Shown here one piece after another: positions 1,688-28,249 of a stretch of 39,642 nt of DNA. This DNA is from an uncultured Acidimicrobiaceae bacterium. Lineage in GTDB: Bacteria > Actinomycetota > Acidimicrobiia > Spongiisociales > ZC4RG35. The stretch lies in the NCBI GenBank assembly GCA_964600055.1, contig CAZRID010000001.1, forward strand, positions 1 through 39,642, in the 5' to 3' direction. The stretch's first letter is position 1. Each line of letters opens with the position of its first letter. The position numbers and the translations under genes are program-made. The notes beneath the pieces are model-generated. The model saw only the letters and a program-made list of their open reading frames with translations, was not told where the DNA came from and did not search any database.

Positions 1688-2077
1688 CTATGTGGGGGGG
1701 TTTCCGTTGCGGGGGGTTTCTCCCAGGTCGATGAGTTGACGTCTGAGCTTTCCGTTGTCGTCGATCAGCTCGTCTCGGGTGGGCCGTTTGGCAACCTCTT
1801 CGATCAGAAGCCGGACCTCCCGGCGGAGCCCGTCGGTGCCTAGCCGTTCGTCTTCGAGCTCTCCGTCGAGACGCTTGATCTCATCGGTCAGGTTTTTGAT
1901 GACGAGGCTTTCCCTTTGTGCCTCGATGACGCCGGCTTCGGCCAGGGTTTTCTTGTCGACCGCTTTCTTGGATGGCTGACCGTGGGAAGCGACCCAGCCG
2001 CTGATCATCGGTGCCAGAATCCCGCCGGCGACGACGGCGACCGCGGCGACGATGGCGATGGTGATCCCTTCGGTCAT
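1688..2077 (-). CDS. Membrane-anchored coiled-coil protein at the distal end of the lysis cassette
   Basis: N-terminal TM helix (ITIAIVAAVAVVAGGILAPMISGW) followed by a charged coiled-coil-like region. Its start overlaps the stop of the gene upstream (ATGA). Confidence 0.55.
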   Translation of the reverse strand: MTEGITIAIVAAVAVVAGGILAPMISGWVASHGQPSKKAVDKKTLAEAGVIEAQRESLVIKNLTDEIKRLDGELEDERLGTDGLRREVRLLIEEVAKRPTRDELIDDNGKLRRQLIDLGETPRNGNPPT

Positions 2078-2379
2078 TTCGTCCTCGCTTTGTCGATGAT
2101 CGCCGTCGAAGCTCGCCGGGCCCGATGAACGATGAGGGCCGGGACGAAGATGATCGGGAAGAGCAGGACGATGACGGTGCCCCTCGGCAGGTCGAGCGGC
2201 CGGCCGGCGAAGTTGAAAGCGATCAGGATCAGGTCGGCGAGGTTGGCCAGTCCCAACATCCCGTATCCGACGGACCGCGCCGGGTGGTGTTGTCCTTTAG
2301 CTTCTCGGGCTTCCCAGAACCATACGAACGCGGCGTAGCCGGATGCCAGGCCGAGTGGGGCTATGGCAAGGAAGCCCAT
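2074..2379 (-). CDS. Holin-like multi-TM membrane protein
   Basis: 101 aa with about 3 hydrophobic helices and a basic C-terminus, immediately downstream of the amidase. Confidence 0.55.
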   Translation of the reverse strand: MGFLAIAPLGLASGYAAFVWFWEAREAKGQHHPARSVGYGMLGLANLADLILIAFNFAGRPLDLPRGTVIVLLFPIIFVPALIVHRARRASTAIIDKARTK

Positions 2380-2382
2380 GGC

Positions 2383-3192
2383 TCAGCCGTCGTCTCGGGT
2401 GTACTCGGCGAGGAGGAGGCAGGTGTACGGGTCGAGCTTGCCGCGGAGGACACCGGGCCGTCCGAGGATCTGGGCGGCTTCCTGATAGAAGGCGACCCTG
2501 GCTTCCATCTCCGGGCCGAACCACGTACCGCGCTCGAGGGGAACCTTGCCCCACTTCTGGTTTTCGTTGAGTGTGTTGAGGGCTCTCTTCCAAATGTCGA
2601 CGTCGTTGCCGACGTCGCCGACCTTGAGGATTGTTGCCATGTCACCCTCCTCGAGTAGCTGGCGGATCCGGGACCGGAACTGGGCCATGTCGACCCCGCG
2701 GGGGTCGACCTTCCGTCCGGGTGGGGTGGCGAATTCCTTGTGGCCGGCGACGTCGTTCTCGTCGGCGCCGACGTGATCGCAAATGGCGGCGGTGGCCCGT
2801 TCCATCACGTCGATCTGGGGGTTGGGCCATGGCTCACCGAGGCCGTCGTTGGCGGCTTCGAGTCCGATCAGGACCCGGTTACCGGTGAGCCCGTTCCAGC
2901 GGCCGACCCCTGAATGGTTGGCGATGCCGGAGGCGACCACGTAGATGATCCCGGTCCGGTCCGGTACCAGCTGGGCCAGCGGGCCGGCCAGGTCGATCCG
3001 TCCGCGGATGATCAGGGTGAGCAGGCCCGCAATCGCCAAGGTCTTCTTGGTGGCGGTGTGATGTTCGAGGACCCCCCGCGGATCGAACGGCTTGGTCTTG
3101 GTGTCGGTACCCCTGGTCTCCCACCCTTCGACGGTGCGGACGTTGCAGCCGGCGTCGTCGAGGACGTCGGAAAGCCACAGGGCCCGGGCCAT
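2383..3192 (-). CDS. Endolysin: N-acetylmuramoyl-L-alanine amidase (Amidase_2/PGRP-like) with a C-terminal peptidoglycan-binding-like domain
   Basis: Motifs EHHTAT, AGHKEF and GRKVDP are typical of zinc amidases. The C-terminal segment VGDVGNDVDIWKRALN resembles a PG-binding repeat. Confidence 0.85.
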   Translation of the reverse strand: MARALWLSDVLDDAGCNVRTVEGWETRGTDTKTKPFDPRGVLEHHTATKKTLAIAGLLTLIIRGRIDLAGPLAQLVPDRTGIIYVVASGIANHSGVGRWNGLTGNRVLIGLEAANDGLGEPWPNPQIDVMERATAAICDHVGADENDVAGHKEFATPPGRKVDPRGVDMAQFRSRIRQLLEEGDMATILKVGDVGNDVDIWKRALNTLNENQKWGKVPLERGTWFGPEMEARVAFYQEAAQILGRPGVLRGKLDPYTCLLLAEYTRDDG

Positions 3193-3512
3193 TACTCGTC
3201 GTCGAGTCTGACGTACTCGGAAACCTTGAGCGGTTCGAGCTGCTTGGCCTTGAGCACCTTGACGGCTTCGGCGACGATGGCGGAGACACCGGCGATGGCG
3301 ATGGCGGCGTTGGCCCGCCCGGTCCAGCTGGTGAACTCACCCACCTCGGGCACATAGGTGGCGCCGTAACCGCAGACGAAGGCGATGCCGTTGACGACGG
3401 CCCCGTCGAGCTTCGAGGTGCCGTCCGGATTCTTGGACAGCTTGCGGACGATGTCGACGAGGTATTTCACCCCGACGGTGGCCAACGCGAACGCGGTCAG
3501 TCCTAGTTCCAT
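3192..3512 (-). CDS. Holin-like membrane protein upstream of the endolysin
   Basis: 106 aa with hydrophobic helices and a charged C-terminus. A strong SD (aaggagaaacagaaATG) precedes the start, and the stop overlaps the endolysin start by 1 nt. Confidence 0.55.
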   Translation of the reverse strand: MELGLTAFALATVGVKYLVDIVRKLSKNPDGTSKLDGAVVNGIAFVCGYGATYVPEVGEFTSWTGRANAAIAIAGVSAIVAEAVKVLKAKQLEPLKVSEYVRLDDE

Positions 3513-7410: not shown

Positions 7411-9800
7411 CAGGCGTGCTCGTTTCGGAAGCGTTCGATTCCGTCGGAGACCGAGTTGGCGACGCGGCGTTCCATCTCGGTGGCGGGGAGGCCGTTGATG
7501 TTGACGTCGATGCGGCCGCCTCCGCCGAAGCCGGCGGCGGCTGCTCCTCGTTCGAGGATCCCGGCTAGCCGGACTTGGCTGGCGAGGCCGGAAAGGTCGA
7601 ACCCGACGGGGATGATGAGTTGGGGGAGTCCCTGACCGGCGATGTCCATCGCCCCGGGGAGCTCGAGGGCGAGGAGGGCGGCCATGTCTTCGGCCTTGGG
7701 GATGATCGCCTCGGTGATCTGTGAGCTGATCTCCCCGCTCACCTGGTCGATCTCGAAACCGATGGCTTCGAACATGGCTTTGACTTCGGCTGGTGTCGAA
7801 CCGAGGGCGGCGGCGATGGCGACGAACCCTGAAGCCGGGTCGCCCTGGTTGAACGTTTCGAAAGCGGCCAGGGTGCGGAGGAGCTGCTCGGCCCGTTCGG
7901 CTGCTTCGCCGGCAGTTTCGGCGCTGCCGCCGGCACCTTCCACGTCCTTGATTTCTCCGAGGAGCTCCTGGAGGGATTGGAACTCTTGGACCGCGGCGAA
8001 GAAGGGGTTGGCAGCGGCGAGGAGGACGTCGGCCAGGTTCTCATGGGCGAGTCGGGCGGCGTCGAGCTGTTCGGCCAGGTTGGCGGCCTCCTGGGCGGCT
8101 GGGGAGAGACCTTCGGCCGAGAGCTGCTCGAGCAATGTTGTCAGGGGATCGACCTGACCGGCGGTTCCGGCGGCGGCGTCGCCGGCGGCGGCCATGCTGT
8201 GAGCCCAGCCGTCGGTGCCGCCCACCGCCATGTCCATGTTGGGGATGTAGTTACGGAAGATGGCCAGCAGATCGGTGGTGGTCAGACCGAGGTCCTGGCC
8301 GGCCTGGTGGGCGTCGAGGAAGGTTTGGCCGATAAGGCCCATCTGTTGAGAGGTGAGCCGGCCGGCGGCGGCGAGCCGGACGAACTCGGTGGTGGAGACT
8401 TTCCCGTTCCGGGCCAGGAACGCCATCTGCTCTGCTACTGCCGCTACCGGGTCGCGGGCGTTGGCCATGGCGTCGATGACGTTGTTGACGGCCACGTCGA
8501 GAAACAGGGCGGCTTTGGCGGCATCGGTGCCGGCCTGATTCCATGGCTGCAACGCCGCCACAACCAGACCGCCGGTGTCGCCGAGCACGTCTAGCCCTCT
8601 GAGGGTGGTGGTGGCGATGTCGGTCACTAACCCGACCAAAGGGTTGGTGGCCAGATCGGTCAGAGATACCACCAGGTCGGTAACCGCCGGGATGATGTCG
8701 TTGGTGATCACCGGGCCGATCGCTTGCAGGCCGAGCACCAGGGAGGGGACGATCTGTTGGCCGGCTTTGATCATCTCGACGTTGATCGCCTCGAGGGCCT
8801 GTTTCATCTTGAAGCCCTCGTCATCGGCCACCGCACCGAACGCGTCGCCGGCATCACCGGTGAAATCGGCGACCTTTGCCATCGTGGCGGCGGTCTGATC
8901 AGCCCCCGCTCCGACCAGGTTCAAGAATCCGGTCAGGGCTCTGACGTCGTCGAACACGTCGGAGATGGCCTCCTCGTTGCCCCGGAAGGCATCCTGGAGG
9001 AAGAGGAGAGTTTCGAGGAGCCCATCGTCGCGGACCGACCTGCGGATCTCGTCGAAGCTCAACCCGAGACCTTCGAGCCGTTCCTCGGCTTGGAGGGATG
9101 GATTCAGGAACGAGACCAGGATCCCCCGGAAACCGGTGAAGGCCTCATCGGCGCCGAGCCCTCGCAAAGTCATGGCAGCGATCGCACCGCCGACCTCTTC
9201 GAACTCGACACCCATCTGGGCCGCGATCGGAATGACCTTGCCGATGCCGTCGGCGATCGAGGCCGCCTCGGCTTTCCCTTCCCGCACGGTCGCCACCAGG
9301 ATGTCGGTGGCGGCGGCCGCCGAGAGCACTGCCGGGCCGTAGGCGCTGATGGCCGAGGTGACAGCGTCGGCGACAGTTGCCGTCTGGCCGAGGCCGGCGA
9401 CGGAGGCCATAGCCGATTGCTCAAGGATGTCCATCGCCTCGGCACCTTTGAAACCTGACGAGGCGATGAACTGGAGTGCTTCGGCCAGTTCCTGGGCCGA
9501 TTTGCCCATCCGCGGACCCATGACCAGGACCTGCTCGCTCCAGGCTTGTACCTGCTCCTCGGCGACGCCGGCCAAACCGACGATCCGGGAGAGGGTGTTC
9601 TCAAATGGGAGGAAGGCGTCGGCGGCCTTATCGGCAAACGCTCCAGAGGCGGCGACCAGACCGGTGAGGCCGACCCCGGCCGCCAACACACCAGGTGACA
9701 GGTTGGTTTTGAGGCCGGTGTTGAGAGCACCCCGGAACGACCCGAAGTCGGGGAGGATGGCCACCCCGGCCGAGGCGATGTTGGGTGTCCCGAAAGGCAT
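7410..9800 (-). CDS. Tape measure protein (796 aa)
   Basis: Large Ala/Gly-rich helical protein with a TP901-type TMP core (…SRIVGLAGVAEEQ…SAQELAEALQFIASSGFKGAEAM…). Follows the chaperone pair. Confidence 0.9.
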   Translation of the reverse strand: MPFGTPNIASAGVAILPDFGSFRGALNTGLKTNLSPGVLAAGVGLTGLVAASGAFADKAADAFLPFENTLSRIVGLAGVAEEQVQAWSEQVLVMGPRMGKSAQELAEALQFIASSGFKGAEAMDILEQSAMASVAGLGQTATVADAVTSAISAYGPAVLSAAAATDILVATVREGKAEAASIADGIGKVIPIAAQMGVEFEEVGGAIAAMTLRGLGADEAFTGFRGILVSFLNPSLQAEERLEGLGLSFDEIRRSVRDDGLLETLLFLQDAFRGNEEAISDVFDDVRALTGFLNLVGAGADQTAATMAKVADFTGDAGDAFGAVADDEGFKMKQALEAINVEMIKAGQQIVPSLVLGLQAIGPVITNDIIPAVTDLVVSLTDLATNPLVGLVTDIATTTLRGLDVLGDTGGLVVAALQPWNQAGTDAAKAALFLDVAVNNVIDAMANARDPVAAVAEQMAFLARNGKVSTTEFVRLAAAGRLTSQQMGLIGQTFLDAHQAGQDLGLTTTDLLAIFRNYIPNMDMAVGGTDGWAHSMAAAGDAAAGTAGQVDPLTTLLEQLSAEGLSPAAQEAANLAEQLDAARLAHENLADVLLAAANPFFAAVQEFQSLQELLGEIKDVEGAGGSAETAGEAAERAEQLLRTLAAFETFNQGDPASGFVAIAAALGSTPAEVKAMFEAIGFEIDQVSGEISSQITEAIIPKAEDMAALLALELPGAMDIAGQGLPQLIIPVGFDLSGLASQVRLAGILERGAAAAGFGGGGRIDVNINGLPATEMERRVANSVSDGIERFRNEHA

Positions 9801-10494
9801 CAGTGGACCGTCCTTTCACCGCCAGGGACCGCGCCTACCCGGAAGGCGTCGAGGGAGAGGACGGTGGCTTTCCGTTTGGTCAGCTGGTTGAAGGTGGCCA
9901 GCCATTCGGGGGTTTCGGTTTCGAGCGGGTTGGCCACCTCGCCGACGGTCCGGTCGATGGCCGGCCGTTTGGGACCGTGGGCTTTCCACACTGCCCGGAT
10001 GAAGGCCGAGTCGGGTGGGAGGTTGTCGATCCGGTTGCGGAGGGTGCGCCAGCTCAGGCTGAGCGGGTCGCTGATCCGGTAGTACCTGTCGAGGTCCGCC
10101 TCCGCCGCCCCGAAGTTTTCGATGATGAGGTCGGGGAGGCTGGGGAGGGGGGGTCTTCGGCCACCTCCACGGTGGTCTCTTCGTCACCGGGGGAGCGGCC
10201 GGCGATTCCCATGTACTCCATCCACAGTTCGCCGGCCGCCCAGCGGAGCTCGTCGAGGGTGAGTTCGGTCTTGATCGCATCGAGCTGATCGCCGAAGAGC
10301 ATGTCGTAGAACGGTCTGACCACTTCGGCGGGCATGATCCGGCCGAAGGCTTTGGATCCGTGCTCGCGTTGGAAATCCAAAAAGGCGCCCGAGTTGATGT
10401 CGGGTGGGAACTCGAACGTGCGACCGCGCGGGAACCGAAGTGTGATCGGTTCCCGCGCGGAGCGTGCTTCGTCGTATTGGTGGATCCGCCCCAT
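9800..10494 (-). CDS. Tail assembly chaperone, -1 frameshift fusion (G-T-like)
   Basis: My translation of the -1 frame from 10147 gives LPSLPDLIIENFGAAEADLDRYYRISDPLSLSWRTLRNRIDNLPPDSAFIRAVWKAHG... It ends in a TGATG overlap with the tape measure start. The -1 frame is open only from 10183. Confidence 0.7.
10054..10494 (-). CDS. Tail assembly chaperone, zero-frame product (G-like)
   Basis: Lies between the major tail and tape measure genes. Contains the in-phase slippery run C CCC CCC at 10153-10147. Confidence 0.75.
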   Translation of the reverse strand: MGRIHQYDEARSAREPITLRFPRGRTFEFPPDINSGAFLDFQREHGSKAFGRIMPAEVVRPFYDMLFGDQLDAIKTELTLDELRWAAGELWMEYMGIAGRSPGDEETTVEVAEDPPSPASPTSSSKTSGRRRRTSTGTTGSATRSA

Positions 10495-11057
10495 CAGGTG
10501 AGGGACACGTACTCGTCGAGGGTCCAGATGGAACCGGACGACGGTTTCGCCAGCCGGAAGGTGGTGGCGATGATCGCCTTCTGCGGGGCCTTACGGAACG
10601 GGATCGACGCCTGGCCGACCGACCACGCCTTGGGGCATTGCAGGTCGGAATGGAACGGGGTGTTGCTGTTGAAGAACCGGAACAGCAACGCCTTGGCGAC
10701 CGCCGAGGTCAGCGACGGGGGAGTCAAGGTGCGGCGGACCGGGGGACCGGGGATCGCGGTCAACGTGCCACCGTTGAGGACGTTCTGGAGCGTCTCGGCG
10801 ATCATCTGCGCCAGGGCGATCGTGAGCCGATACTCGACCGCGGTGAAGCGGGTGTCGATCGGTTCGGCCTCCTCGGCGACATCGATGTTCTCGAAGGTCA
10901 TGTCGAACTCGAAGGCGGCACCCTGGTCGGAATAGCCGACGTCGATCCATGTCCCCGCGGGGGCTGTTTCCGGGGTGGCCGGGAAGGCGGTCGCGAGAGG
11001 GGCTGTCCACATTTGGCCGGGGCCGACTAGGACCTGGGTTACATTTCTTGCTGGCAT
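10494..11057 (-). CDS. Major tail protein (187 aa)
   Basis: Position directly upstream of the chaperones, appropriate size, SD aggagg. Confidence 0.75.
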   Translation of the reverse strand: MPARNVTQVLVGPGQMWTAPLATAFPATPETAPAGTWIDVGYSDQGAAFEFDMTFENIDVAEEAEPIDTRFTAVEYRLTIALAQMIAETLQNVLNGGTLTAIPGPPVRRTLTPPSLTSAVAKALLFRFFNSNTPFHSDLQCPKAWSVGQASIPFRKAPQKAIIATTFRLAKPSSGSIWTLDEYVSLT

Positions 11058-11102
11058 TCGTTGTCCTCCTGCCTGGTTGCGGGTCCTTGTCGGACCGGTC
11101 GG

Positions 11103-11357
11103 TTACTTGCTGGTCTTGGCCTTTGCACGTCGGGGAGCTCGGACGGTTCTCGGAGTGGTGGTCTTGGCGGCCGCCTTCTTCACTTCCGCGAAGGCGGGGA
11201 GCCGGGGCTTGTCCTCGCCAGCCCAGATCTCGACCTTCTCGAGGTTGGCCCATTCGGTCTCGTCGACCTCGTAGACCTCGCCGGCGATGAACATCGCCTT
11301 GCCGATCTCCACGGCCGAGGTGGGCCACAGAGCCGGGTTGACTTGGATGGTGTGCAT
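11103..11357 (-). CDS. Small protein with a basic Ala/Lys/Arg C-terminal tail (84 aa)
   Basis: Trimmed to the ATG at 11357, preceded by caggaggcct. The tail reads KKAAAKTTTPRTVRAPRRAKAKTSK. It resembles the gene at 18697-18993. Confidence 0.6.
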   Translation of the reverse strand: MHTIQVNPALWPTSAVEIGKAMFIAGEVYEVDETEWANLEKVEIWAGEDKPRLPAFAEVKKAAAKTTTPRTVRAPRRAKAKTSK

Positions 11358-12745: not shown

Positions 12746-13369
12746 TCAGAGACCGGGAAGGATGTAACGGTCGAGGATCGGCCACATCCATTCGGAGAAC
12801 TCGACCAGGTTGTTGAGACCGTCGGCCGGGCCGAAATATTCGGCCCGGTAGGTGTCGATCTGTTCGGCTTTGAGACCTTCCGAGGGGCCACCGCCGGCGG
12901 CGTTGGCCGCACCCATCTGGAAGGCGTGGGCTGCCATCCAGGCGACGACGTCGACCAGAGCCTTCGGGGCCTGGTTGGCCGGGTATCCGCCCTGATAGGT
13001 GACGACGATCCCTTGCGGCTTCGAGGTCCGCCACTCGGCCTGGTTTCCGCCGGAAACTCTGATGAGCCGGCCTTCCAGGTCGGCGTCGCTGTAAAGCAGA
13101 TAGTCGGAAGCGGAAAGGGTGACGCCGGCTTCGACCACCGTGGTGATCGAAACGACCGGCAGATATTTGAGGAACAGGGCCCTCCGCGGGGAACCGGCAT
13201 GATGCCCGTCGAACCGTTCGGTGTGGGCGGTCTGCTCGAGCGGTCGGCCGAGATGACTTTCGACGTGGCCCTGGGCCGCCTCGAGGAGAGCGGTGACCAC
13301 CGCGTCGGGTTCGGAGGTCACATCGATTTGGAGCCGCTTCTCGACGTCGGCCTGGATAGCGATGGTCAA
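12746..13369 (-). CDS. Head-tail connector (gp6-like) protein
   Basis: N-terminus ADVEKRLQID...VVTALLEAAQGHVESHLGRPL is typical of gp6-like connector proteins. Contains parS-like copy 3. Confidence 0.55.
   Translation of the reverse strand: MTIAIQADVEKRLQIDVTSEPDAVVTALLEAAQGHVESHLGRPLEQTAHTERFDGHHAGSPRRALFLKYLPVVSITTVVEAGVTLSASDYLLYSDADLEGRLIRVSGGNQAEWRTSKPQGIVVTYQGGYPANQAPKALVDVVAWMAAHAFQMGAANAAGGGPSEGLKAEQIDTYRAEYFGPADGLNNLVEFSEWMWPILDRYILPGL
13043..13057 (+). promoter_or_regulatory. parS-like palindrome copy 3 (inside a CDS)
   Basis: The plus strand reads GGTTTCCGCCGGAAAC. The transcribed minus strand carries the central-G form. Confidence 0.5.
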
Positions 13370-13378: not shown

Positions 13379-14860
13379 CTACCAGGGGGGCGAGTCGCCG
13401 GGGCCGACCCGGGTGAAACCGACCGGGTTCCGGGTGAAACCGACCGGATCCGGCGACCAGAAGGAGGCGGCGGGGAGGGCGTCGGTGGCGGTGACCGTGG
13501 CGGTGATCAGGATCTGGAGCTGGTCGACGGCGTCGAAACGGTCGGTGGCGGCCACTGTGACGATCACAACGATCCCGAGTGCTTCGGCCCCGCTCCACGA
13601 ATGGGACCCGTCGATGGTGACCACACCGGTGATGGTGAGGTTCTCGACCGAGTCGAGCCGATCGCTGGCGGCCACGGTGGCGGCCGCTTCGATCTCACGG
13701 TTCTCCACCGCGTCGAGTCGGTCGGTGGCGGTGATCGTGACACTGCCCGAAACCTCGCGGCCGGTCTCGTCGTAATGGGCGGAGCCGGCGAGCGTGTCAG
13801 TCCCGGTGACCGTCGAAACGATCGTCACCTCGCGGCTGGACTCCTCATGGTCCTGGCGATCGGATCCTGAAACTGTGCCGGCGACGGCCACCTCGGCGGC
13901 CTCGACCATGTCGACCCGATCGGAGCCGGTCACGCTTGAGGTGATCGTGATAGTGAGGTTCTCGACGTACCGCTTGGCGTCGGTGCCGGTAACCGTGGCG
14001 GCGATCGACAGCTCGGCCGCTTCGACCATGTCGACCCGATCGGTGCCCGCCACGGTCGCTACCGCGGCGACCTCGCGGCCGGCTTCCTCATGGTCCTGCT
14101 GGTCGGTTCCGGTGACGGTGCCGGTGACGGATATCTCACGGCCGGTCTCGTCGAAGAGGGTGCCGCCCGCTACTTCTCGGATGGCGATGAGCGATACCAC
14201 CCACCCGGCGCCTGCTGGGGCCGACGAGGGAGTGTCGGTGAAGGTGTCCCCGGTGATCGTGGCCAGGCGGGTGGCGACATGTACTGTGACGTTGTTAGCC
14301 GCTGGGGTGCCGGTGGTACCGAAATCGAACTGTTCGGTGTAATCGGCGTCGGTGGTAAATGTAATCTCGTTCTCGGTGGCATCGATTCCGATCCACATCC
14401 GCTCGATTGAGCTGAGTCCGGAAAGGGTTACCTCATGCGTCGCTCCGCCGGTTCCATCAACATGGGCGGGAGTTTCCACCGCGTAGTCGCTGGCACCGAT
14501 GGGAATTTCGAGGATGCAGATGGCCTTGGCGGCGGTGTTGCCCGAACGGTTGCCGGTGATCGTGTCGCCGGTTCCAATCTCGGTGGTGACGAGGGTGATC
14601 CAGGCCGATTTTGTGATGCCATCGGCGACGGCACCTTCCGAGCGGGTGCGCTCATAGAGCTTTACCCAGGTGTGTCCGTCGGTATCGGTGACTGAGGTGT
14701 GATGGGTAGAAGCCCCAGAGGTAGTCGTGGAGTTGTCGGTGGCGAACACCACCAGCGCCAGGCGTCCGACAGCAATAGCCGCGCTCGGAGAGAACGCAAT
14801 GCTGGCGCCGGATACCTTCTCTGATGCCGACCCGCGGGCAACGGGGGTACCGAAGGCCAT
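13379..14860 (-). CDS. Repeat-array protein: about 235-aa N-terminal domain plus about 11 degenerate 19-25-aa repeats
   Basis: Repeats of the type E..(R)E(V/I)....TV(T/A)G(T/S)DR.D.V run from aa 236 to about aa 470. The C-terminus carries PVGFTRN PVGFTRV. Confidence 0.7.
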   Translation of the reverse strand: MAFGTPVARGSASEKVSGASIAFSPSAAIAVGRLALVVFATDNSTTTSGASTHHTSVTDTDGHTWVKLYERTRSEGAVADGITKSAWITLVTTEIGTGDTITGNRSGNTAAKAICILEIPIGASDYAVETPAHVDGTGGATHEVTLSGLSSIERMWIGIDATENEITFTTDADYTEQFDFGTTGTPAANNVTVHVATRLATITGDTFTDTPSSAPAGAGWVVSLIAIREVAGGTLFDETGREISVTGTVTGTDQQDHEEAGREVAAVATVAGTDRVDMVEAAELSIAATVTGTDAKRYVENLTITITSSVTGSDRVDMVEAAEVAVAGTVSGSDRQDHEESSREVTIVSTVTGTDTLAGSAHYDETGREVSGSVTITATDRLDAVENREIEAAATVAASDRLDSVENLTITGVVTIDGSHSWSGAEALGIVVIVTVAATDRFDAVDQLQILITATVTATDALPAASFWSPDPVGFTRNPVGFTRVGPGDSPPW

Positions 14861-14863: not shown

Positions 14864-16390
14864 TTAACTCCAAACGCCGGACTGCCACCTATGGATTTCG
14901 ACTCCACCTTCCAAGATTCTCAACACCGACCCCGCCCCCAACGACGTGATCGTGAAGTCGGCCGGGAGTAGACCGCAATCCTCGAACCGGTACGAAATAG
15001 GGGTAGTCCCGGCCTGGACCAGCACGTTCGTCCACGTCGCCCGACGGGCCACCACGTCGCCACGGATGACCGTGATCGGGGCGTGGGCGATGACAAGCTG
15101 CCCGTCGGTCAGATAGTCTTCAAAAAGGATGGCGTCTTCCCGTTCCGACTTGGCGAACGACCAGAGCGCCGCCCGGTTCGGCGAGACCGGGCCTGGGCCG
15201 TCGGCGGTAGACGTGATTTGACGGAACCGGGAATCGTTCCGATAAGCCCCCGAGATGATCCCACCCCGCCCGTTCCGATAAGAGTCGAACCGGTTAAACG
15301 GATGGGAGTAGAGATGGTCGTTCTGCCAGTTGAACAATCCGAGGGCGTTGTTGTTGTGAGAGACGCAGTCGTCGAACTGCCACACCGCCCCGCCCACATT
15401 CGCCCCGGAATGTTCCGGCCAGTGGAAACCGGACGACTGGGTCCCACCGCTAACCGCCGCCGCTACAGAGTCGACACAACGATTATCGGAACCGGCCAGC
15501 AACAAAAACCCGGTCAGCCGGATAGCGTTCTGACTGTTCGACGCTGACACCCCCAACGCCAAACAGTGGTCGTACAAGTTGTCATTGGTGTTGTTGGCGG
15601 TGTGATTGTTGTCCAGTGGCCGATCCCACCAATACGGGTCGTCTTTCGTGTTGTAGGCAACACAGTCGACAAACGAAACCCCATACGAAGCGTGCGGAAC
15701 GAAAGCATGGTTCTTCCCACCCTCAACCACAACAGCCTCGACTATCGACCCGCGGCTGGCCTCACCGTTGAGATGGAAGTGGAGCGGATAGTCACCGAGG
15801 ACTCCGGTCGTGCCCGAATCAACGACGGCGAGATGCTTTAAAGATTGGACGCCGGCACCCTCATGAAAGTGGAGCCGGCGCAGATTGATGAACTTGATCG
15901 ACCGGGTGAGGTTGGCGACTTCCGGCTTCGCAATCGAACCGTCGACCAAAGTCACGTCGGGCGAGTTGACCGGTCGGACAGTGGCCGCCCACGAACCCTG
16001 CCAAGTGATGACGGTCGGCACGTAAACCCCGACCTTGGTGGGGGCTACACCCAAACGGTCACCGGTCACCCAGCCAGTTGTATCTCCACCCCAGGGAGTC
16101 CAACCCTTCTTGACCTTTCCGGCCAGAGTGACAACCCCGCCGTTCTGGACAAGGATTTGGAACCCGTTCCCGGCAACCGTGAACGTGTCGATCCCGGTCA
16201 GAGTGCCTTCGACAATCAGATCCCCGGTCAGGTTCACATTGCCGACGATCTGCGCGGTAGTCCCAGTGGGAATAGTCCCGGAATAGTTGCCAGAGATTTG
16301 CACAGTGGCTAGCGCCTTTCGATGGAACAGACCAACCCCCAACGCAGCCAGCCAGCCCGCAAGGATTTGCAAGAACCGGCGGCGATGCAT
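14864..16390 (-). CDS. Tat-signal beta-helix protein (G8-like N-terminus, pectate-lyase-fold-like), 508 aa
   Basis: MHRRRFLQILAGWLAALGVGLFHRKALA-TV has a twin-arginine motif and an AxA cleavage site. The body is rich in short Gly/Asn/Val beta-helix-like repeats. Confidence 0.65.
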   Translation of the reverse strand: MHRRRFLQILAGWLAALGVGLFHRKALATVQISGNYSGTIPTGTTAQIVGNVNLTGDLIVEGTLTGIDTFTVAGNGFQILVQNGGVVTLAGKVKKGWTPWGGDTTGWVTGDRLGVAPTKVGVYVPTVITWQGSWAATVRPVNSPDVTLVDGSIAKPEVANLTRSIKFINLRRLHFHEGAGVQSLKHLAVVDSGTTGVLGDYPLHFHLNGEASRGSIVEAVVVEGGKNHAFVPHASYGVSFVDCVAYNTKDDPYWWDRPLDNNHTANNTNDNLYDHCLALGVSASNSQNAIRLTGFLLLAGSDNRCVDSVAAAVSGGTQSSGFHWPEHSGANVGGAVWQFDDCVSHNNNALGLFNWQNDHLYSHPFNRFDSYRNGRGGIISGAYRNDSRFRQITSTADGPGPVSPNRAALWSFAKSEREDAILFEDYLTDGQLVIAHAPITVIRGDVVARRATWTNVLVQAGTTPISYRFEDCGLLPADFTITSLGAGSVLRILEGGVEIHRWQSGVWS

Positions 16391-16397
16391 CAGGCAC

Positions 16398-17852
16398 TCA
16401 CGAGTAGCCCCGGGCGGCCCACTGCGCCGGGGTGGCATCGTTGTTCAACCAATGGTTCACCGACCCGACCTCGGTGTTGTGAAACCAAATCACCTGGTTA
16501 GGCGTCGAGTTCGGGTTGCAACCTTCATAGGTGACAGCGATGTGCTGCCCGGTCCAAGCGTTCCCGATGGCACCTTGGATCGTGTTGTCACGGACCACCG
16601 TCCCACAAACCGAGTTGGCGTGGTCGGCGGGGAAAGAGCGGTTCGGCTGGTAGAGGATGATCCCGTTGCGGGCCCCGTCGATCGTGTTCCCCGAAATGAG
16701 GATCGCCCCGCCGTAGTTGTTGAAAATGGCGGCGTCCCGATACTCCTGCGGCTGCGACCCGTAAGCCGTGTTGACCAGGGTGTTGTCGCGGATCGTCCCA
16801 CCCTCACCCAATTCGACGATGATGCCGTGGCGTTGAATGTCGTGGACGTAGTTGCCTTCGATGAGGAACCCGCCGTTGTTCCCATCCAGCCACAAGCCGT
16901 TGCCGCCGCTGTCGATGTTTCTGATCTCAGAGTTGCGGACCGTGAAGCCGGACGAGTGGTTGATCTTGGAAATACCCCGGTCGGAAGCGACGAACCGAGG
17001 AGCGAAGGGAAGCCCATCGACCCCGCATTGGGAGAGGAGCGAGTGGTCGACCGTGTGATTGCTGCCGGACCCGCCGATGCAATACTGGCCGTTCTGTTGC
17101 GAGGTGATGTAGGAGGCGAGCCAGCCGGAACCGCCGAAGCGCAACCCTGAAAGTCGGTTGTCCTTAAACTCGACGTTCCGGATGACGACGTTGTTGGCCC
17201 CGTTAGCCAGAAACGGGCTGTTGCCCGGAGCGTCGTCCAGTCCCCGGTACCGGCGGATGGTCATGTTGGCAAAGAGGTTGTTCGTCTGGAGCCGCCAGGC
17301 AACCTCGATGGTGGCCTGGCCATCAAAGATGACCGCGCCATGATTGTTGGCAGGGCCGTAGTAGCGGTTGCCCGCCTTGTTCGGAAGGTCACCCAGGAGG
17401 TAGGTACCGGGCTCTAAAGCGAAGGCGGTACCGGCCGGTCGGCTGTTGATCTGGCTGACAATGTTGGCTGGGGTGACCGCAACCGCACCGGAGGGGACCG
17501 CCAGCGACGCACCCGCAACCCCGGCGCCGTAGAGACCCGAAGGTGCTGTGGTAGTCGTTGTGGGCGGCGCCACTGTCGTCGTCGTAGTGGGCGCCACCGT
17601 GGTTGTAGTGGTCGGAGCCGCCGCCGTTGTGGTCGTCGTTGGTACTGCCGTCGTCGAAGTGCTCGAGGTCGTCGTGGAGGGCGGAGCGGTCGTTGTGGGT
17701 AGGGCGTAGCCCTGCTCGATGACGATGTCCGCTATGTCCCGCCACGCCTGCTCGGGAGTGCGCGCGGTCTGACCGCCGACCGAAAGGGCGGCAGCCAGAA
17801 CCGCGAGCATCAGGCCCGCCGTCAGGCCCGCCGTCAGACGACGCCTCGTCAT
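16398..17852 (-). CDS. Secreted right-handed parallel beta-helix protein with a Thr/Pro-rich linker, 484 aa
   Basis: Signal peptide MTRRRLTAGLTAGLMLAVLAAALSVGG, then about 55 aa of T/P/S/A-rich linker, then PbH1-like repeats (NNVVIRNVEF, FTVRNSEIRN, GFLIEGNYVHD, GTIRDNTL, ILISGNTI, VVRDNTI). Confidence 0.7.
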   Translation of the reverse strand: MTRRRLTAGLTAGLMLAVLAAALSVGGQTARTPEQAWRDIADIVIEQGYALPTTTAPPSTTTSSTSTTAVPTTTTTAAAPTTTTTVAPTTTTTVAPPTTTTTAPSGLYGAGVAGASLAVPSGAVAVTPANIVSQINSRPAGTAFALEPGTYLLGDLPNKAGNRYYGPANNHGAVIFDGQATIEVAWRLQTNNLFANMTIRRYRGLDDAPGNSPFLANGANNVVIRNVEFKDNRLSGLRFGGSGWLASYITSQQNGQYCIGGSGSNHTVDHSLLSQCGVDGLPFAPRFVASDRGISKINHSSGFTVRNSEIRNIDSGGNGLWLDGNNGGFLIEGNYVHDIQRHGIIVELGEGGTIRDNTLVNTAYGSQPQEYRDAAIFNNYGGAILISGNTIDGARNGIILYQPNRSFPADHANSVCGTVVRDNTIQGAIGNAWTGQHIAVTYEGCNPNSTPNQVIWFHNTEVGSVNHWLNNDATPAQWAARGYS

Positions 17853-18424
17853 GCGAGCTTGACCCCGATGGTGACGTCGAGGGTGTCGGCGATGACCAGG
17901 GTTCGAGTCGCAGATAGGGCTACCCAGGCCAGATGGAGCCCGGCGGTTCCGTTCTGGGCGGTGCCCAAGATCAGCTGGGTCGCTGCTGACCAGGTGCCGC
18001 CGGCGGTGAAGGTCTTGGTCCCTGTCACCGTCCGCATGTCCCCGGAGTCGAGCGCCGGATCCGACCAGTCGGTACCGCGGGCTACTTGGATCCCGTCGTA
18101 GCTGGTGCCGGTGACCTCTCCGGTGAGTGTGGCCAGGGTGTCAGTTTCGATCGGGGTGTCGTTGTAGAGCCGCAGATATGTGTTGGTCCGGACGGCGACG
18201 TCGTCGAAGTAGACATCGAGGATGTCCTTTTCGCCTTCGTCGGCCAGGGCGTTGGGGGTCCACAGCTGGGAGCGGCGCACCTCGCGGTCGGCCCGTGATC
18301 CTTTGAGGATCGCGCCGATGGCGAAGTCCTCCGATCGGTGGCCACCATCGGACGCCCACAACAGATATTGGCGGCCGTCATCGGCAATCCGATACTGCGC
18401 GAACTTGTACTTGGTGCCGATCAT
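17849..18424 (-). CDS. Hypothetical late protein (191 aa)
   Basis: Trimmed to the ATG at 18424 (ATGA overlap). It is coupled by ATGA to the secreted beta-helix gene downstream. Confidence 0.6.
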   Translation of the reverse strand: MIGTKYKFAQYRIADDGRQYLLWASDGGHRSEDFAIGAILKGSRADREVRRSQLWTPNALADEGEKDILDVYFDDVAVRTNTYLRLYNDTPIETDTLATLTGEVTGTSYDGIQVARGTDWSDPALDSGDMRTVTGTKTFTAGGTWSAATQLILGTAQNGTAGLHLAWVALSATRTLVIADTLDVTIGVKLA

Positions 18425-19086: not shown

Positions 19087-20814
19087 TCAGTCGAGGTTGT
19101 AGAGGTAAGCGGTGTCGTCGTCGGTCGACTCACCGAGGTTCTGGAAGTCCTCACGCATGAAGCCGACCACGACCCTCTGGTAGCTCTCCCGATAGATCGA
19201 GTCGTCGACCTCGACGTCGAGGCCCATCCGCTGACCCATCACCCAGGCGCCACGGTTGACGACCACCAACCCGGTCTGGGTGGTGGTGACGCCGTCGTTG
19301 ACGCCGGTGGCGTTCATGTCCTCGCGGAAGTGCTCGGAGACGATGATCGGCGTTCCGTCGATCGATCCGAGCTGACCGTTGAGGATCGTTGCGGCCGCGC
19401 CCATCTTGTCGACCGTGGTCACGTCGGACGTGGCCAGGAGGTCGTAGTAGGCGGCGATCGAGGTGATGATGGCGATGTCGGCGGGGTTGAGGCCCCACTT
19501 GCCCATCGCCGCCCGGGCACCGCGGAGCAACGCCAGGGTCACGATGGCACTGCCACCGTTGACGAAGGTGTTGGCGATCCCTCGCTTGCGGAGCCCGTCC
19601 CAGGCGGTGGCAGCGTCGGTGGCACCGACTGCTTGCGTATCCGTATCCTGGTGGGTGCCGTCGGTGTCACCGTTGATGATGGCCCGCTCTTCGGCATCGA
19701 CGAAGGCCCTGGCCAGCTTGAACTTGACGAAGGGCAGCACCGCGATGGCCGAGTCTGCCTCCATCGACCTCGAGAACAGGATCCTCCCACCGAAGATCTC
19801 GGCGTCGAAGGTTGCCGCTCCGGTGCCGGGCGTGCTCGCCGTCACCTTGGTGGCCGTGTCCGAGGTCGGCTCGGGGACCCGGTAGGCGACAGCGTCGGCG
19901 CCTTCCAGCGGCCACTTCCACGGGTTGGTCGGCATATCGACCCGCGGAAACAACGGAGCCACCCGGCCGGCCGCTCGGACCTTCTCGTGAAGGTCGGCGC
20001 CGATCCCGGTCGGAACCCAGTTTCCACCCTCGGCGGCAGTGTCGACGTCGAGAGCGCGGAGGGAATGCTCGAAGCGTTCCTTCATCCGCTTGTCGGCCCT
20101 GGCCGAAGCGAAAGCGTCACGGCTCGACTTCGCCGAACGGTCGACCATGAACCCGAAGAGGATCATGTCGGCCACAGTCCGCTGGAAATGGCGGATGGTC
20201 GCCTGGTGCTCGGCTCGGAAGTCGCCGATGCGGGGAGCGAGGGCGATGTCCTCGTTCTGGTTGCGGACGTAGACCTGCTCGACGGCGTTGCGGGCCCCGA
20301 ACTGGTTGGGGAGGAAATGGCCGTTCTGGCTGATCGAACCTGCGGGGACTTCCTCGAGCGTCGCCCAGAGGAGCTCGTCGAGGCTGCGGTTGGCCGAAGC
20401 CGGCGGATCCGAGATCAGGTTGATCTTGGGGACGGCCCGTTCCTTGATCTTGTCGTAGTCCGCCGATCTCGTTGCAGATGCCGACTTCTCAGCCAGTTCG
20501 TCGAGCAGCGTTTCTGCCGCGTCGAACTCGACCTTGGCTTCGTCGTATCGCTTCTTCTCGTCCTCGGTGAGGACCCGCTCTTCGGCTTTGGCGGTTCGGA
20601 AGATCTCGCCCATCGATTCGTGGGCCTTGCGCCGCTTCTCTTTGGCGGCGTCGAGCTCCTGGTTGATGGTTTCGATCTCGAGGTAGCCCATGTCCGAGGC
20701 GAAGCCGCGGAGGGCCATTTGGAACCGTTGGCCGATTCCGAGCCCGGGCTTGAACAATGTGACCATCAGGGCGATGTACGCCAAGAAGGCCAGAAGGGTG
20801 ATGAATGTCTTCAC
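19087..20814 (-). CDS. Major capsid protein, HK97 fold, with an N-terminal delta/scaffold-like coiled coil
   Basis: Position after the protease. Has a coiled-coil N-terminal region and a typical HK97-like body. The GTG start at 20814 is preceded by TAAGGAGAAACG. Confidence 0.85.
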   Translation of the reverse strand: MKTFITLLAFLAYIALMVTLFKPGLGIGQRFQMALRGFASDMGYLEIETINQELDAAKEKRRKAHESMGEIFRTAKAEERVLTEDEKKRYDEAKVEFDAAETLLDELAEKSASATRSADYDKIKERAVPKINLISDPPASANRSLDELLWATLEEVPAGSISQNGHFLPNQFGARNAVEQVYVRNQNEDIALAPRIGDFRAEHQATIRHFQRTVADMILFGFMVDRSAKSSRDAFASARADKRMKERFEHSLRALDVDTAAEGGNWVPTGIGADLHEKVRAAGRVAPLFPRVDMPTNPWKWPLEGADAVAYRVPEPTSDTATKVTASTPGTGAATFDAEIFGGRILFSRSMEADSAIAVLPFVKFKLARAFVDAEERAIINGDTDGTHQDTDTQAVGATDAATAWDGLRKRGIANTFVNGGSAIVTLALLRGARAAMGKWGLNPADIAIITSIAAYYDLLATSDVTTVDKMGAAATILNGQLGSIDGTPIIVSEHFREDMNATGVNDGVTTTQTGLVVVNRGAWVMGQRMGLDVEVDDSIYRESYQRVVVGFMREDFQNLGESTDDDTAYLYNLD

Positions 20815-20823: not shown

Positions 20824-21579
20824 TTACTTGAGGAGGAGCTGGTGCTCGCGCTCCAGCTGCTCCAGTTCCAGTAGTGCCAGTTGGGTCAGGTCCGGCCCGG
20901 GCGCGGGTGGTGTCTGTTCCCTGGAAGGGTCCGACCCGTCACCGGGTGGTGCCATTCCGATTTCCTTCCACAGCTCGGAGAGCTGTTGGGGGGAAAGTTT
21001 TCTGAGGTGGTCGGCCATGTTGCGGACGCCTTGGACTTCGGCGGCGGCGTTGGCCGGGAAGATGCAGGGCCCGTACTCGCGGAGGCGGACCTCGAGACGA
21101 TGAATCTTGGGAAGGTCGCCAGATTCCTTGGCCGGATCGATCCGCTTCGATTGGATCGGGTAGAACGCGAAGCTGTACGAGTCGATGGTGGGAGGGTCGG
21201 CCGCGATCTGGGCGAAGACTTCCTCGCCGAGCTCGGACCCGTTGAACCTGGTCGAGGTCCACAGACCTTTGCCGTCTTCTTTGACCTCGAGCGGGGCGCC
21301 GATCGGGAGGGAGTGCCGATCGGAGGGCCAGCCGTGGATGTCACAGCCATGGTTGAAGAGGCACTTGAGCTTGCGGAACCCTTTGGCGTTGTGCTCGCGG
21401 AGGGTCTTGACGAAGGCGCCCTTCTTGAAGCTCTCCATGTAGTGGCCGTCCTGCCAGTCGTAACATTCGTACTCGACGTCGAAGACCGAGGCGTAGGCGT
21501 CGACGAGGCGGTTGCCCTGCCCGTCGGTGCGGACCTGGAGGTCGATCAGTTCGAAGGCGCGGTTGAACTCAGTCTCCAC
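20824..21579 (-). CDS. Prohead protease (HK97/S78 family)
   Basis: The motifs LFNHG...PIG and DSYSFAF, and its position between portal and capsid. Confidence 0.85.
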   Translation of the reverse strand: METEFNRAFELIDLQVRTDGQGNRLVDAYASVFDVEYECYDWQDGHYMESFKKGAFVKTLREHNAKGFRKLKCLFNHGCDIHGWPSDRHSLPIGAPLEVKEDGKGLWTSTRFNGSELGEEVFAQIAADPPTIDSYSFAFYPIQSKRIDPAKESGDLPKIHRLEVRLREYGPCIFPANAAAEVQGVRNMADHLRKLSPQQLSELWKEIGMAPPGDGSDPSREQTPPAPGPDLTQLALLELEQLEREHQLLLK

Positions 21580-21600: not shown

Positions 21601-22875
21601 TCAGGGCTGGGGGGTTACGGTGATCTTGCCGGCGGCCAGGAGCACCGCTCCGGAGTCGGGATCGACCACGTTCATGTTGGCGGGCCGGTAGGCCACGTTC
21701 ATCCCCTCGCGGGGTGGGTAGTTCTCCCGCCGGCGGGGCTCGTCGAGGGTGAGCCATCCGTCCTGGACGCCCTGGTGGTAAGCCTCGTAGCGGGTCTTGA
21801 TGTCGCCGCGGAGGAGGCCTTCGAGGTTGAACTCGCCGAAGGTGTTGGGGGTGACCAGGTCGCTGGCGGGATGGTTGATCCAAGCTTCGAGACGGAGACA
21901 CCACGGCCGGATCGAGTCGGTGACCGATTCGATCGACTGATGTTCGATGTTGTTGTTGGTCGACCTGGTCAGCTCGTAGAGCTTGTGCGGTGGGATCCGG
22001 AGGATCCGGGCCACCTCGGTGACCCCGAACTGGCGGGACTCGAGAAGCTGGGCATCGTCCGCCTTGAGGTCGATCGTGTTGTACGTAGCGCCGGCGGAGA
22101 GGACCGGGGTGAGATTGGCCTTCTTGAGTCCCTTGTGGAACTCGCTCATCTCCTCCTGGAGCCTCTTACGTTTGGCTGCGTCGTCGCCGGTGCCGGTGCC
22201 GCCTTTGATCGGGGCGGTCAGTTGGATGTAGTCGCGGAGGTGAGTGCCGTTGGCGAAGAAGGTGGCGGCCAGCTCGTCGGCAGCGGCGACGGTGCCGAGA
22301 CTGAGACGGTGAGCCTGAATCGGGCTGATCGGGTTGATCCCGTCGAGGCACAAGAACGGAACCCAGAAGACGTCGTGGTCGGTGTAGGTCTTCCAGTTTC
22401 CGTCAGAAACTTTGACCTCGTATACGCGGAGGCCGGTCTTCTCATCGGACTTCGGTTTGACCCGATCGGGGTGGAGGAACCGCATCCCGATCACCTGGCC
22501 GAAGGTGTCTCGCAATTTGAAGCCGGCGCAATAGCCGCGGTTGAGGAGGGAGAGCATCCACGACTCGAACAGGCTTTGCCGGATCCATCCCTCGTCGGGC
22601 TGTTCGAGCCAGACCGGACCGGCGCTGAAGGTTCGTTCGTTCTGAGTGAGCCGGCGGAAACTATCGAAGGGGAGGAAGGCGACGGTCTCGGAGAGGTAGC
22701 GGATCCCGGAGTACCAGGCGGTAATGCCAAGGGCGCGGCGGTCGCTCATAGCCACCCCGGCCGCGGTCGGCCCGTAGCCGGCGTTGCTGGCCAGCAACGC
22801 CCCGAAGTCCTCTAGGGAGAGCGGGTCGAACCTTTTCTTGGTGCGGGCGGCGGCGATACGACCGAAGGCGCTCAT
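21601..22875 (-). CDS. Portal protein (HK97 family)
   Basis: 424 aa, downstream of the terminase. General portal-like sequence character. Confidence 0.85.
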   Translation of the reverse strand: MSAFGRIAAARTKKRFDPLSLEDFGALLASNAGYGPTAAGVAMSDRRALGITAWYSGIRYLSETVAFLPFDSFRRLTQNERTFSAGPVWLEQPDEGWIRQSLFESWMLSLLNRGYCAGFKLRDTFGQVIGMRFLHPDRVKPKSDEKTGLRVYEVKVSDGNWKTYTDHDVFWVPFLCLDGINPISPIQAHRLSLGTVAAADELAATFFANGTHLRDYIQLTAPIKGGTGTGDDAAKRKRLQEEMSEFHKGLKKANLTPVLSAGATYNTIDLKADDAQLLESRQFGVTEVARILRIPPHKLYELTRSTNNNIEHQSIESVTDSIRPWCLRLEAWINHPASDLVTPNTFGEFNLEGLLRGDIKTRYEAYHQGVQDGWLTLDEPRRRENYPPREGMNVAYRPANMNVVDPDSGAVLLAAGKITVTPQP

Positions 22876-23051
22876 TCGGACTCATCCGATTCAGATTCGA
22901 GCTCGGGGCTCTGACCAACGGCCCAGCCGCGGAGCTCGGCTATCGCCAGGATCAAACCACCGGCGACGACGAGAGCCCAGCCGGGGCCGGCCACCAGGTA
23001 GATCCCGGCGGCGATCATGGCCACACCGAGCGCTTCGAGGGCATCGGTCAT
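22872..23051 (-). CDS. Unlisted 59-aa membrane protein between TerL and portal
   Basis: My translation is MTDALEALGVAMIAAGIYLVAGPGWALVVAGGLILAIAELRGWAVGQSPELESESDESE. ATGA overlaps occur at both ends. It falls below the size cutoff of the ORF track. Confidence 0.6.
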   Translation of the reverse strand: MTDALEALGVAMIAAGIYLVAGPGWALVVAGGLILAIAELRGWAVGQSPELESESDESE

Positions 23052-26428: not shown

Positions 26429-26499
26429 GACTGGGACCGCCCTTTCGGTTTTGTGTGGTGAGCCCATCGGAGGCGCTGGCACTTCGGGAAGCGGGCGGA

Positions 26500-28240: not shown

Positions 28241-28249
28241 TTCGGGCTC

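Follow-up and report, generated by a model that had tools for sequence, protein, structure and literature searches.

Two adjacent minus-strand genes, termed A and B, lie between the capsid and head-tail adaptor genes of a complete temperate siphovirus of uncultured actinobacteria, approximately 39.6 kb in length, whose genome makes up the whole of the contig analyzed here (39,642 bases; the window) and has almost all of its genes on the minus strand. Both genes encode beta-helix proteins of the polysaccharide-enzyme type preceded by export signals, a twin-arginine translocation (Tat) signal in B and a Sec-type signal in A, and these N termini make export of both proteins in this phage likely. 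We propose, with moderate confidence, that A and B are late-expressed enzymes which are exported via the Sec and Tat routes, respectively, have their signals cleaved and attack a host surface glycan before or at lysis. What the analysis shows directly are the signals in the sequences, the folds, the synteny and the genomic surroundings of homologs; from these we infer the steps from signal to export and from beta-helix to cleavage of a host glycan, as well as the substrate, the bond chemistry, the timing and the benefit to the phage. An earlier note on this DNA had identified the two open reading frames (ORFs), and both were confirmed. The features of the two genes are as follows.

16398..17852 (−): gene A, exported-type beta-helix protein, 484 aa (ORF, Pfam and AlphaFold model)
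17772..17852 (−): A signal peptide, aa 1 to 27; MTRRR, then 22 uncharged residues and predicted cleavage at VGG↓Q (V25-G26-G27↓Q28)
17538..17699 (−): A Thr/Pro-rich linker, aa 52 to 105 (54 aa), from sequence; predicted local distance difference test score (pLDDT) of <50 and no secondary structure
16401..17495 (−): A beta-helix catalytic-type domain, aa ~120 to 484 (Pfam, AlphaFold and PDB fold matches)
14864..16390 (−): gene B, Tat-signal beta-helix protein, 508 aa (ORF, Pfam and model)
16307..16390 (−): B twin-arginine signal peptide, aa 1 to 28; MH-RRRFLQ, h-region ILAGWLAALGVGLF, HRK, then ALA↓TV
14867..16306 (−): mature B beta-helix (alignment of 45 homologs and model)

Twin-arginine signal and fold of B

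The N terminus of B reads MHRRRFLQILAGWLAALGVGLFHRKALA↓TV across the predicted cleavage site. Residues 2 to 8 (H-R-R-R-F-L-Q) form a Tat motif of the S/T-R-R-x-F-L-K type, which is followed by an h-region of 17 uncharged residues with a mean hydropathy of 1.95, a basic HRK and an AxA site (A26-L27-A28↓T29). Among 736 candidate starts in the six frames of the window, a strict Tat pattern was matched only by the two alternative starts of B, the other of which, an upstream ATG at 16438, would merely extend the n-region. The RRRFLQ motif is retained in divergent B homologs with otherwise different signals, e.g., MKRREFLKGAAL and MDRRRFIKTLGAA, in agreement with the earlier description of a textbook twin-arginine motif. 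Comparison with the B gene of a related phage contig (L001) detected seven synonymous and five nonsynonymous differences in the first 45 codons; the codons for H2 and R3 differ synonymously, while the amino acids of RRRFLQ are identical. Synonymous changes with an intact motif indicated that the signal segment of B is translated and under selection. Elsewhere in the late operon, the only signal-like N terminus among ORFs filtered for GC3 (codon composition) was on the capsid ORF, in a doubtful extension that begins with the GTG at 20814. The longest form of that ORF opens with a hydrophobic segment, MKTFITLLAFLAYIALMVTLF (20740-20814), and the true capsid start is probably downstream, e.g., at MALRGF. 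A GTG at 16301-16303, codon 30 of B, is located immediately past the predicted Tat cleavage site with an AAAGG approximately 11 nt upstream and, speculatively, could give rise to a signal-less cytoplasmic isoform.

Structural models of A and B were built with AlphaFold on homolog alignments. The model of B (mean pLDDT, 93.4) has an N-terminal helix corresponding to the signal and a right-handed parallel beta-helix from residue 30. Its match to Pfam PF24606 (CEMIP_beta-hel), at 26.1 bits, is slightly below the cut-off of 27.3, but the assignment is supported by precomputed matches to this family in B itself and in nearly all of its 115 homologs and by the best fold match in PDB, the TMEM2 ectodomain (8c6i; E = 4.5e-8; query TM-score, 0.52); further matches in PDB and BFVD included the Klebsiella K1 capsule lyase, GH110 enzymes, phage depolymerases, tailspikes and AlgG. 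In the alignment of 45 homologs, residues H204 and H206 (within YPLHFH), H233, S235, G237 and W324 are invariant. NCBIfam yielded only sub-threshold beta-helix repeat matches, with the Tat-signal model not being reported, and sequence searches with A and B against PDB chains detected nothing at an E value of ≤1.

Leader and fold of A

Gene A did not fit even a loose Tat pattern and was therefore called Sec-type. Its h-region has a mean Kyte-Doolittle hydropathy of 1.82, and A homologs retain a small-x-small↓Q motif (x-A/G↓Q) after the hydrophobic core. Gly, Ala, Ser and Thr account for 13 of the 22 residues of this core, a composition that could accord with a signal-anchor-release (SAR) segment (uncleaved, weakly hydrophobic, Gly/Ala/Ser rich and released on depolarization), but the conserved cleavage-type motif argues for cleavage. 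An exact 12-nt tandem duplication at 17810-17837 (CTGACGGCGGGC twice on the coding strand) is translated as LTAG-LTAG within the core, where the hydrophobic region is four residues longer than in the L001 homolog.

The linker, which the earlier note had put at about 55 residues, is preceded by a short conserved 14-residue helix (aa 33 to 46). Thr/Pro linkers are typical of secreted actinobacterial enzymes. The same leader, comprising a signal, an EALEAIAxILVEQGxxLP-like short helix and a TP linker, is joined to unrelated C-terminal domains in the metagenomic proteins P0141, P0143 and P0149 and so behaves as a secretion leader. In the model of A (mean pLDDT, 82.9), an N-terminal helix corresponds to the signal, and stacked strands of a right-handed parallel beta-helix begin at residue ~120. 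Pfam Beta_helix (PF13229) was matched with 53.6 bits (cut-off, 25.9; 2.7e-14) and NosD at 4e-5, only just reaching its cut-off. Fold matches in PDB were led by the A-module of the AlgE4 epimerase and included chondroitinase B and other PL6 lyases and GH87 glucanases. Neither model contains an N-terminal particle-binding domain, as mature B enters the beta-helix at once and A has only the 14-residue helix and a disordered linker ahead of it. On these models, we are confident that A and B are right-handed beta-helices of the polysaccharide lyase, hydrolase or epimerase type. Pfam matches, models and fold matches thereby bear out the earlier designation of a polysaccharide lyase/glycosidase-like beta-helix as a statement of fold, not of chemistry, which these neighbors do not assign.

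Cellular relatives and origin of B

The B family is of modest size, with 750 clusters at an E value of ≤1e-10 among 1.84 billion representatives, and its cellular members are mostly from Acidimicrobiia. Three cellular homologs were inspected, and all were inside surface-polysaccharide loci containing dTDP-rhamnose genes, ABC-2 exporters, GT2 and GT4 glycosyltransferases, sulfotransferases, polysaccharide deacetylases and a Wzx-type flippase. When about 170 further loci from metagenomes and GTDB genomes were searched for marker genes, many more of the homologs proved to have such a context, among them the closest genomic relatives of B (42 to 45% identity), found in metagenome-assembled genomes of Acidimicrobiia. 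As assigned heuristically, export-type N termini were present in 31 of the 33 untruncated homologs with a clear polysaccharide context (Tat-like in 14; Sec- or transmembrane [TM]-like in 17). In a rough neighbor-joining tree, which is approximate, the Tat-bearing cellular enzymes were sister to the phage clade, and Tat-bearing and signal-less B sequences were interleaved. The signal of B, its relatives in polysaccharide clusters and this sister position make capture of a host enzyme the simplest history, in which phages would have taken the exported processing enzyme of the cluster together with its signal. This host origin was not part of the earlier note, nor were the signal-less homologs and the fiber-like genes described below.

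Slot between capsid and adaptor genes

The position of A and B between capsid genes and the head-tail connector, tightly packed with their neighbors, was confirmed by Pfam and PHROG matches of the flanking genes.

19087-20814 (−): HK97-type major capsid protein, upstream boundary of the slot (Pfam Phage_capsid and phrog_10)
17849..18424 (−): Gp80-like small fiber-type protein, directly upstream of A (Pfam PF23140 Gp80; 31.2 bits versus a cut-off of 27)
13379..14860 (−): 493-aa repeat protein (FIB), directly downstream of B (ORF and sequence repeats)
12746..13369 (−): head-tail adaptor, downstream boundary of the slot (phrog_442; 3.1e-31)

Two small genes stand between the major capsid gene and the Gp80-like gene, and the latter has ATGA overlaps at both ends. 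The overlap shared with A (17849-17852) and the gaps of at most 7 nt were as described in the earlier note, with 7 nt between A and B and 3 nt between B and the next gene. A scan of 12 to 21 kb detected no excess of promoter or terminator signals, which speaks against an autonomous cassette, although an embedded promoter is conceivable. The GC content falls to 0.60 over 15 to 17 kb, compared to about 0.65.

FIB, which we regard as fiber-like, consists of a conserved N-terminal domain, degenerate repeats of ~20 aa (VTGTDRVDMVEAAE-like, within 13470-14170) and a C-terminal FW..DPVGFT..PVGFT..GD.PPW motif; it had no match in Pfam, PHROG or PADLOC. Its N-terminal domain recurs downstream of B in other phages, as the subtype of the window in L003 and L006 and as a second subtype in L001, L005 and L043, and a 465-aa protein downstream of B in L178 opens like FIB (MAFSAVTERGSA...). 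The C-terminal motif is shared across related phages, one instance being a 296-aa protein of L180, whereas the repeat units of these phages are wholly different.

No close phage relative of the window was found in GenBank, all matches of the capsid protein having <35% identity over about half of its length or less, and tblastn searches of 50,697 GenBank phage records with A, B, the repeat protein and the Gp80-like protein detected no match. The PADLOC profiles likewise did not match A, B or the Gp80-like protein, and PHROGs gave no family for A or B. A scan of IMG/VR for B detected only seven distant loci; for relatives of A, two narrower alignments against IMG/VR produced no confirmed locus. 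About eight independent phage loci were inspected. The slot between capsid and adaptor is conserved over phages of distinct head lineages, with S78 protease, ClpP protease and Mu-like heads, and contains the following genes in order.

L001, S78 protease head: 215-aa protein, LamG-like protein, A, B (Tat), repeat protein, adaptor
L178, Mu-like head: Gp80, B (Tat), repeat protein
L180, head not assigned (unannotated 242-aa gene at the protease position): Gp80, A, 167-aa Sec-signal protein, two small proteins, protein with the repeat-protein motif, adaptor
L013 and L015 (IMG/VR), S78-type head (L013): small protein, B homolog with signal, large proteins, adaptor

The window and L001 are mosaic with respect to each other: A is 84% identical, and the identity of B is about 90% over the first 100 residues and drops to about 37% at the C terminus. 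In related phages, too, a small protein is encoded immediately ahead of the A or B homologs; it matches Pfam Gp80 in L178 and L180 and belongs to other small-protein subfamilies in L003, L013, L015 and L181. The 167-aa protein of L180 (7492-7995) is a third exported-type protein in a head-neck slot; it begins with a clear Sec signal (MKRILLFLVLGLMLLMATTPAIA↓DH) and matches no family. Sugar-related genes (glycosyltransferase, methyltransferase, NeuB/CMP-sugar synthetase or NAD-epimerase) lie next to the enzyme slot in related phages, within the head genes or shortly behind them, and could serve virion glycosylation or remodeling of the host glycan. They were located as follows.

L003: 5227-8761
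L005: 3183-5573
L178: 3009-5630 (upstream of the capsid gene)
L013: 5508-6587
L181: 1316-2182

Two homologs were found in other surroundings. In phage contig L007, the lysis cassette begins with P0126, a distant A-like protein (32% identity) with the same leader type, whose gene runs into the start codon of an Amidase_2 endolysin; this location fits an accessory lysis or exit enzyme. The endolysin gene is followed (10826-11314) by one for a 162-aa protein bearing an HEFGH zinc-protease-type motif and then by a multi-TM holin candidate. The second, P0043, is a Tat-bearing B homolog of L179 whose gene follows the lysis cassette, with a sulfotransferase as its neighbor and regulatory genes close by, in a place resembling that of a moron.

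Proposed role and alternative explanations

According to our proposal, A and B would be made late along with the virion proteins and exported while the cell is intact. B would fold in the cytoplasm, pass through the host Tat system and be cleaved at ALA↓TV, while A would leave by its Sec-type signal and be cleaved at VGG↓Q to yield a helix, a Thr/Pro spacer and a beta-helix. Outside the membrane, both would act on a secondary cell-wall or capsular polysaccharide of the host, the target polymer being the product of the Rml/ABC-2/glycosyltransferase/sulfotransferase clusters that encode the cellular relatives of B. Thinning of this glycan layer before or during holin-endolysin lysis would allow progeny to escape, would prevent readsorption to debris and might block superinfection. 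Late exported enzymes are favored by the conserved signals, the beta-helix folds, the absence of an anchor domain, the cellular context, P0126 and the tight packing. The earlier note had likewise proposed late-expressed, exported glycan enzymes; signals, folds, operon position and cellular relatives agree with this, while export, substrate and timing are drawn from them indirectly.

Several points weigh against this proposal. In L003/L004, L005 and L181, the B homolog at the syntenic position lacks a signal altogether, indicating that the enzyme core does not need export before lysis. The slot also houses fiber-like genes, encoding the Gp80-like and repeat proteins, and together with the signal-less homologs these make virion mounting or release at lysis possible for some relatives. 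The signal calls were made from motif and hydrophobicity heuristics and conservation. A and B lie ~11 kb from the lysis cassette of the window, and the host is uncultured. Furthermore, TMEM2, the best fold match of B, has no assignable active site and no hyaluronidase activity (PMC10206443); catalytic activity of B is hence not assured, and its chemistry cannot be assigned from TMEM2.

The signal-less homologs were examined for a missed N-terminal extension or frameshift fusion. In L003, an in-frame TGA is located directly upstream of the ATG, and in L005 there are just nine open upstream codons, none of which is a start codon; this excludes an extension or a fusion for L003 and L005. Each signal-less B gene is preceded by an ORF of 85 to 90 aa, with an ATGA overlap in L003 and L181 and a GTGA overlap in L005. 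The L003 ORF has weak, sub-threshold PKD/filamin/Big matches, that of L181 is 55% identical to it, and that of L005 has no Pfam match. Present in the three signal-less loci, this ORF is missing in five syntenic signal-bearing loci (about P = 0.018 by Fisher's exact test, with loci that are phylogenetically nonindependent). Hitchhiker Tat export via the small ORF was rejected, as these ORFs carry no signal. A strict alternation of small ORF and Tat signal was also rejected; P0016 and P0017 have a Tat signal and an Ig-like segment together, so the Ig-like segment does not simply replace export.

These homologs bear on the explanation that the enzymes are mounted on the virion, where A and B would form fibers or spikes at the head-tail junction together with the Gp80-like and repeat proteins. 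The signals would then be unused, partly used (dual localization) or skipped through internal initiation, for example at the codon-30 GTG of B. Consistent with such neck or head appendages, the genes are immediately upstream of the head-tail adaptor, the fold is tailspike-like, a small protein precedes the enzymes in every examined phage locus (with a Pfam Gp80 match in three) and each signal-less B homolog has the 85- to 90-aa ORF ahead of it, in its weakly matched (L003), 55% identical (L181) and unmatched (L005) forms. A structural precedent, which also counts against export, is the Ralstonia podophage GP4, in which the Gp80 fiber (fiber I) is attached at the neck, on the head-to-tail adaptor, via a 93-aa Ig-like fiber adaptor (PMC11445570). 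The likeness lies in the Gp80-family protein before A and B and in the small ORF before signal-less B, and attachment through an Ig-like adaptor makes neck mounting of signal-less B conceivable. GP4 is, however, a proteobacterial podophage, and no mention of beta-helix enzymes or signal peptides for its fiber system was found in the text consulted. For A and B themselves, virion mounting appears distinctly unlikely: both carry canonical, conserved signals (Tat and Sec) that descend from exported cellular enzymes, an N-terminal anchor domain is lacking, the Thr/Pro linker is of a kind generally known from secreted actinobacterial enzymes, an A-like homolog resides in a lysis cassette, and P0016 and P0017 join a Tat signal to an Ig-like segment. 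A broader scheme would accommodate both forms, whereby a widespread group of actinobacterial siphoviruses carries a host-glycan module between head and neck genes in which one captured depolymerase core has two interchangeable modes of delivery, Tat/Sec export as a secreted receptor-destroying or exit enzyme and, in sister phages, signal-less neck mounting behind a small ORF that may be Ig-like (weak matches in one of three), the N-terminal module having been swapped repeatedly. We regard this scheme as tentative and, taken as a whole, unlikely.

Two further explanations retain export but assign it another purpose. A and B could be lysogenic-conversion genes (morons), also suggested in the earlier note, which are secreted from the prophage state and trim or remodel the glycan of the lysogen, leading to a serotype change or receptor loss and the exclusion of related phages. 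The phage is temperate (integrase at 210-1064 and a tRNA-Asn at the contig end), P0043 is in a typical moron position, sugar-related genes (glycosyltransferase, methyltransferase, NeuB and epimerase) occupy the same slot in related phages, and the GC content dips over 15 to 17 kb. The close packing contradicts this weakly, since there is neither room for nor an excess of promoter or terminator signals and the start and stop codons overlap those of structural genes; moreover, synteny is kept across the S78 protease, ClpP protease and Mu-like head lineages. We consider a moron role rather improbable for A and B. Alternatively, the proteins could be exported without depolymerizing anything, either modifying the glycan, as for a C5-epimerase like AlgE4 or AlgG, or merely binding to it. 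The best fold match of A is the epimerase module of AlgE4, AlgG is among the matches of B, TMEM2 has neither hyaluronidase activity nor an assignable active site (PMC10206443), and WceF, a beta-helix enzyme considered below, works in chain-length control and not in bulk degradation (PMC7949094). Most of the fold neighbors are, however, lyases or hydrolases, the invariant His-rich cluster of B suggests catalysis, and the A-like relative beside an endolysin suggests a destructive role, leaving a purely nondepolymerizing function very doubtful.

Relation to known systems and significance

The best-characterized analogue is WceF of Pantoea stewartii, a Tat-signal protein with a tailspike-like right-handed beta-helix that is encoded in the stewartan exopolysaccharide cluster and acts on that polymer (PMC7949094). 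It resembles the cellular relatives of B in combining a Tat signal, a beta-helix and a polysaccharide-cluster gene. In contrast to A and B, WceF is chromosomal, from a Gram-negative host and a 736-aa trimer with extra domains; no sequence similarity to either protein was detected in the search of PDB sequences, and WceF did not appear among the 50 best fold matches. Phage tailspikes and capsule depolymerases (P22 tailspike, Klebsiella K1 lyase, KP34p57 and phi297 gp61) share with A and B the beta-helix and a presumed host-glycan target but have N-terminal particle-binding domains and no signal peptides and are usually encoded after tape-measure and tail-tip genes. The CEMIP/TMEM2 proteins (PF24606; 8c6i) provide both the best sequence-profile match and the best fold match of B; they differ in being eukaryotic cell-surface proteins with inserted lectin-like domains, and B falls slightly under the Pfam cut-off.

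Export of a lytic enzyme before lysis has precedents in the Sec-signal endolysin Lys44 of phage fOg44 and in SAR endolysins, which are exported by the host machinery before holin triggering (reviewed in PMC6116005). These demonstrate that such export is workable, but they are peptidoglycan hydrolases of the lysis cassette that utilize Sec or SAR and not Tat, and the endolysin of the window is itself signal-less. Mycobacteriophages encode LysB, an accessory lysis enzyme for the layer outside the peptidoglycan; it is an alpha/beta-hydrolase esterase, remains cytoplasmic until holin action and is encoded beside LysA. As with LysB, A and B would be second enzymes directed at an envelope layer beyond the reach of the endolysin. 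The comparison, drawn already in the earlier note, would hold at the level of function only, as the fold and chemistry differ and A and B are beta-helices with export signals whose genes stand between those for head and neck, ~11 kb away from the endolysin gene. Only the distant A-like P0126 adjoins an endolysin.

Beta-helix depolymerases, exported endolysins and accessory lysis enzymes are thus known already. No direct precedent for a phage-encoded, Tat-exported depolymerase was found in the literature searched, an absence that is not proof, and a phage beta-helix enzyme with a Tat or Sec signal, located in the structural operon and derived from a host polysaccharide-cluster enzyme, was not found described. 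Phage depolymerases are usually seen as virion parts for entry or as surplus soluble enzyme freed at lysis. If the proposal holds, active secretion by the host Tat and Sec systems in late infection would constitute a third depolymerase mode, with an exit or receptor-destroying function comparable to that of viral neuraminidase, and the accessory-lysis idea would extend to the glycan layers of non-mycolate actinobacteria. It would also document the direct capture of a host polysaccharide-cluster processing enzyme with its signal peptide intact. The pairing of enzyme and cluster would be a sequence handle linking phages of uncultured Acidimicrobiia to host glycan types, A and B would be candidate self-secreting glycan-degrading enzymes for an understudied phylum, and the Tat-plus and Tat-minus sister pairs would offer a natural experiment on the evolution of delivery mode.

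Other features of the window

The remaining features of the phage genome are as follows.

23048-24739: large terminase (profile searches)
21601-22875: portal (profile searches)
20824-21579: S78 prohead protease (profile searches)
10494-11057: tail tube (profile searches)
7410-9800: tape measure (profile searches), with tail-tip genes also in the window
1688..3512 (−): lysis cassette, defined by its members
2383-3192: signal-less Amidase_2 endolysin, in the lysis cassette
210-1064 (+): tyrosine integrase (profile searches)
39557-39630: tRNA-Asn, at the right contig end

Besides the endolysin, the lysis cassette encodes a 106-aa membrane protein, a holin candidate with three TM segments and a protein whose N terminus has a TM segment and whose charged C-terminal part is probably helical. 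The integrase is at the extreme left and the tRNA-Asn at the extreme right of the contig, which has no terminal overlap; this arrangement is compatible with a break of the contig at the att site or with circular permutation, and tRNA-Asn is the likely integration target. The region from 26000 to 29000 has a lower GC content (0.60 to 0.61), few of its ORFs pass the GC3 filter, and it contains an exact 25-nt direct repeat (27707-27731 and 28250-28274, 543 nt apart). In the early/regulatory region, a 38-nt unit carrying the palindrome AAGACCGGCAATGGGTTGCCGGTCTT occurs four times at 33342-33579 with spacings of 59 to 81 nt; these units could be operators, iterons or stacked hairpins.

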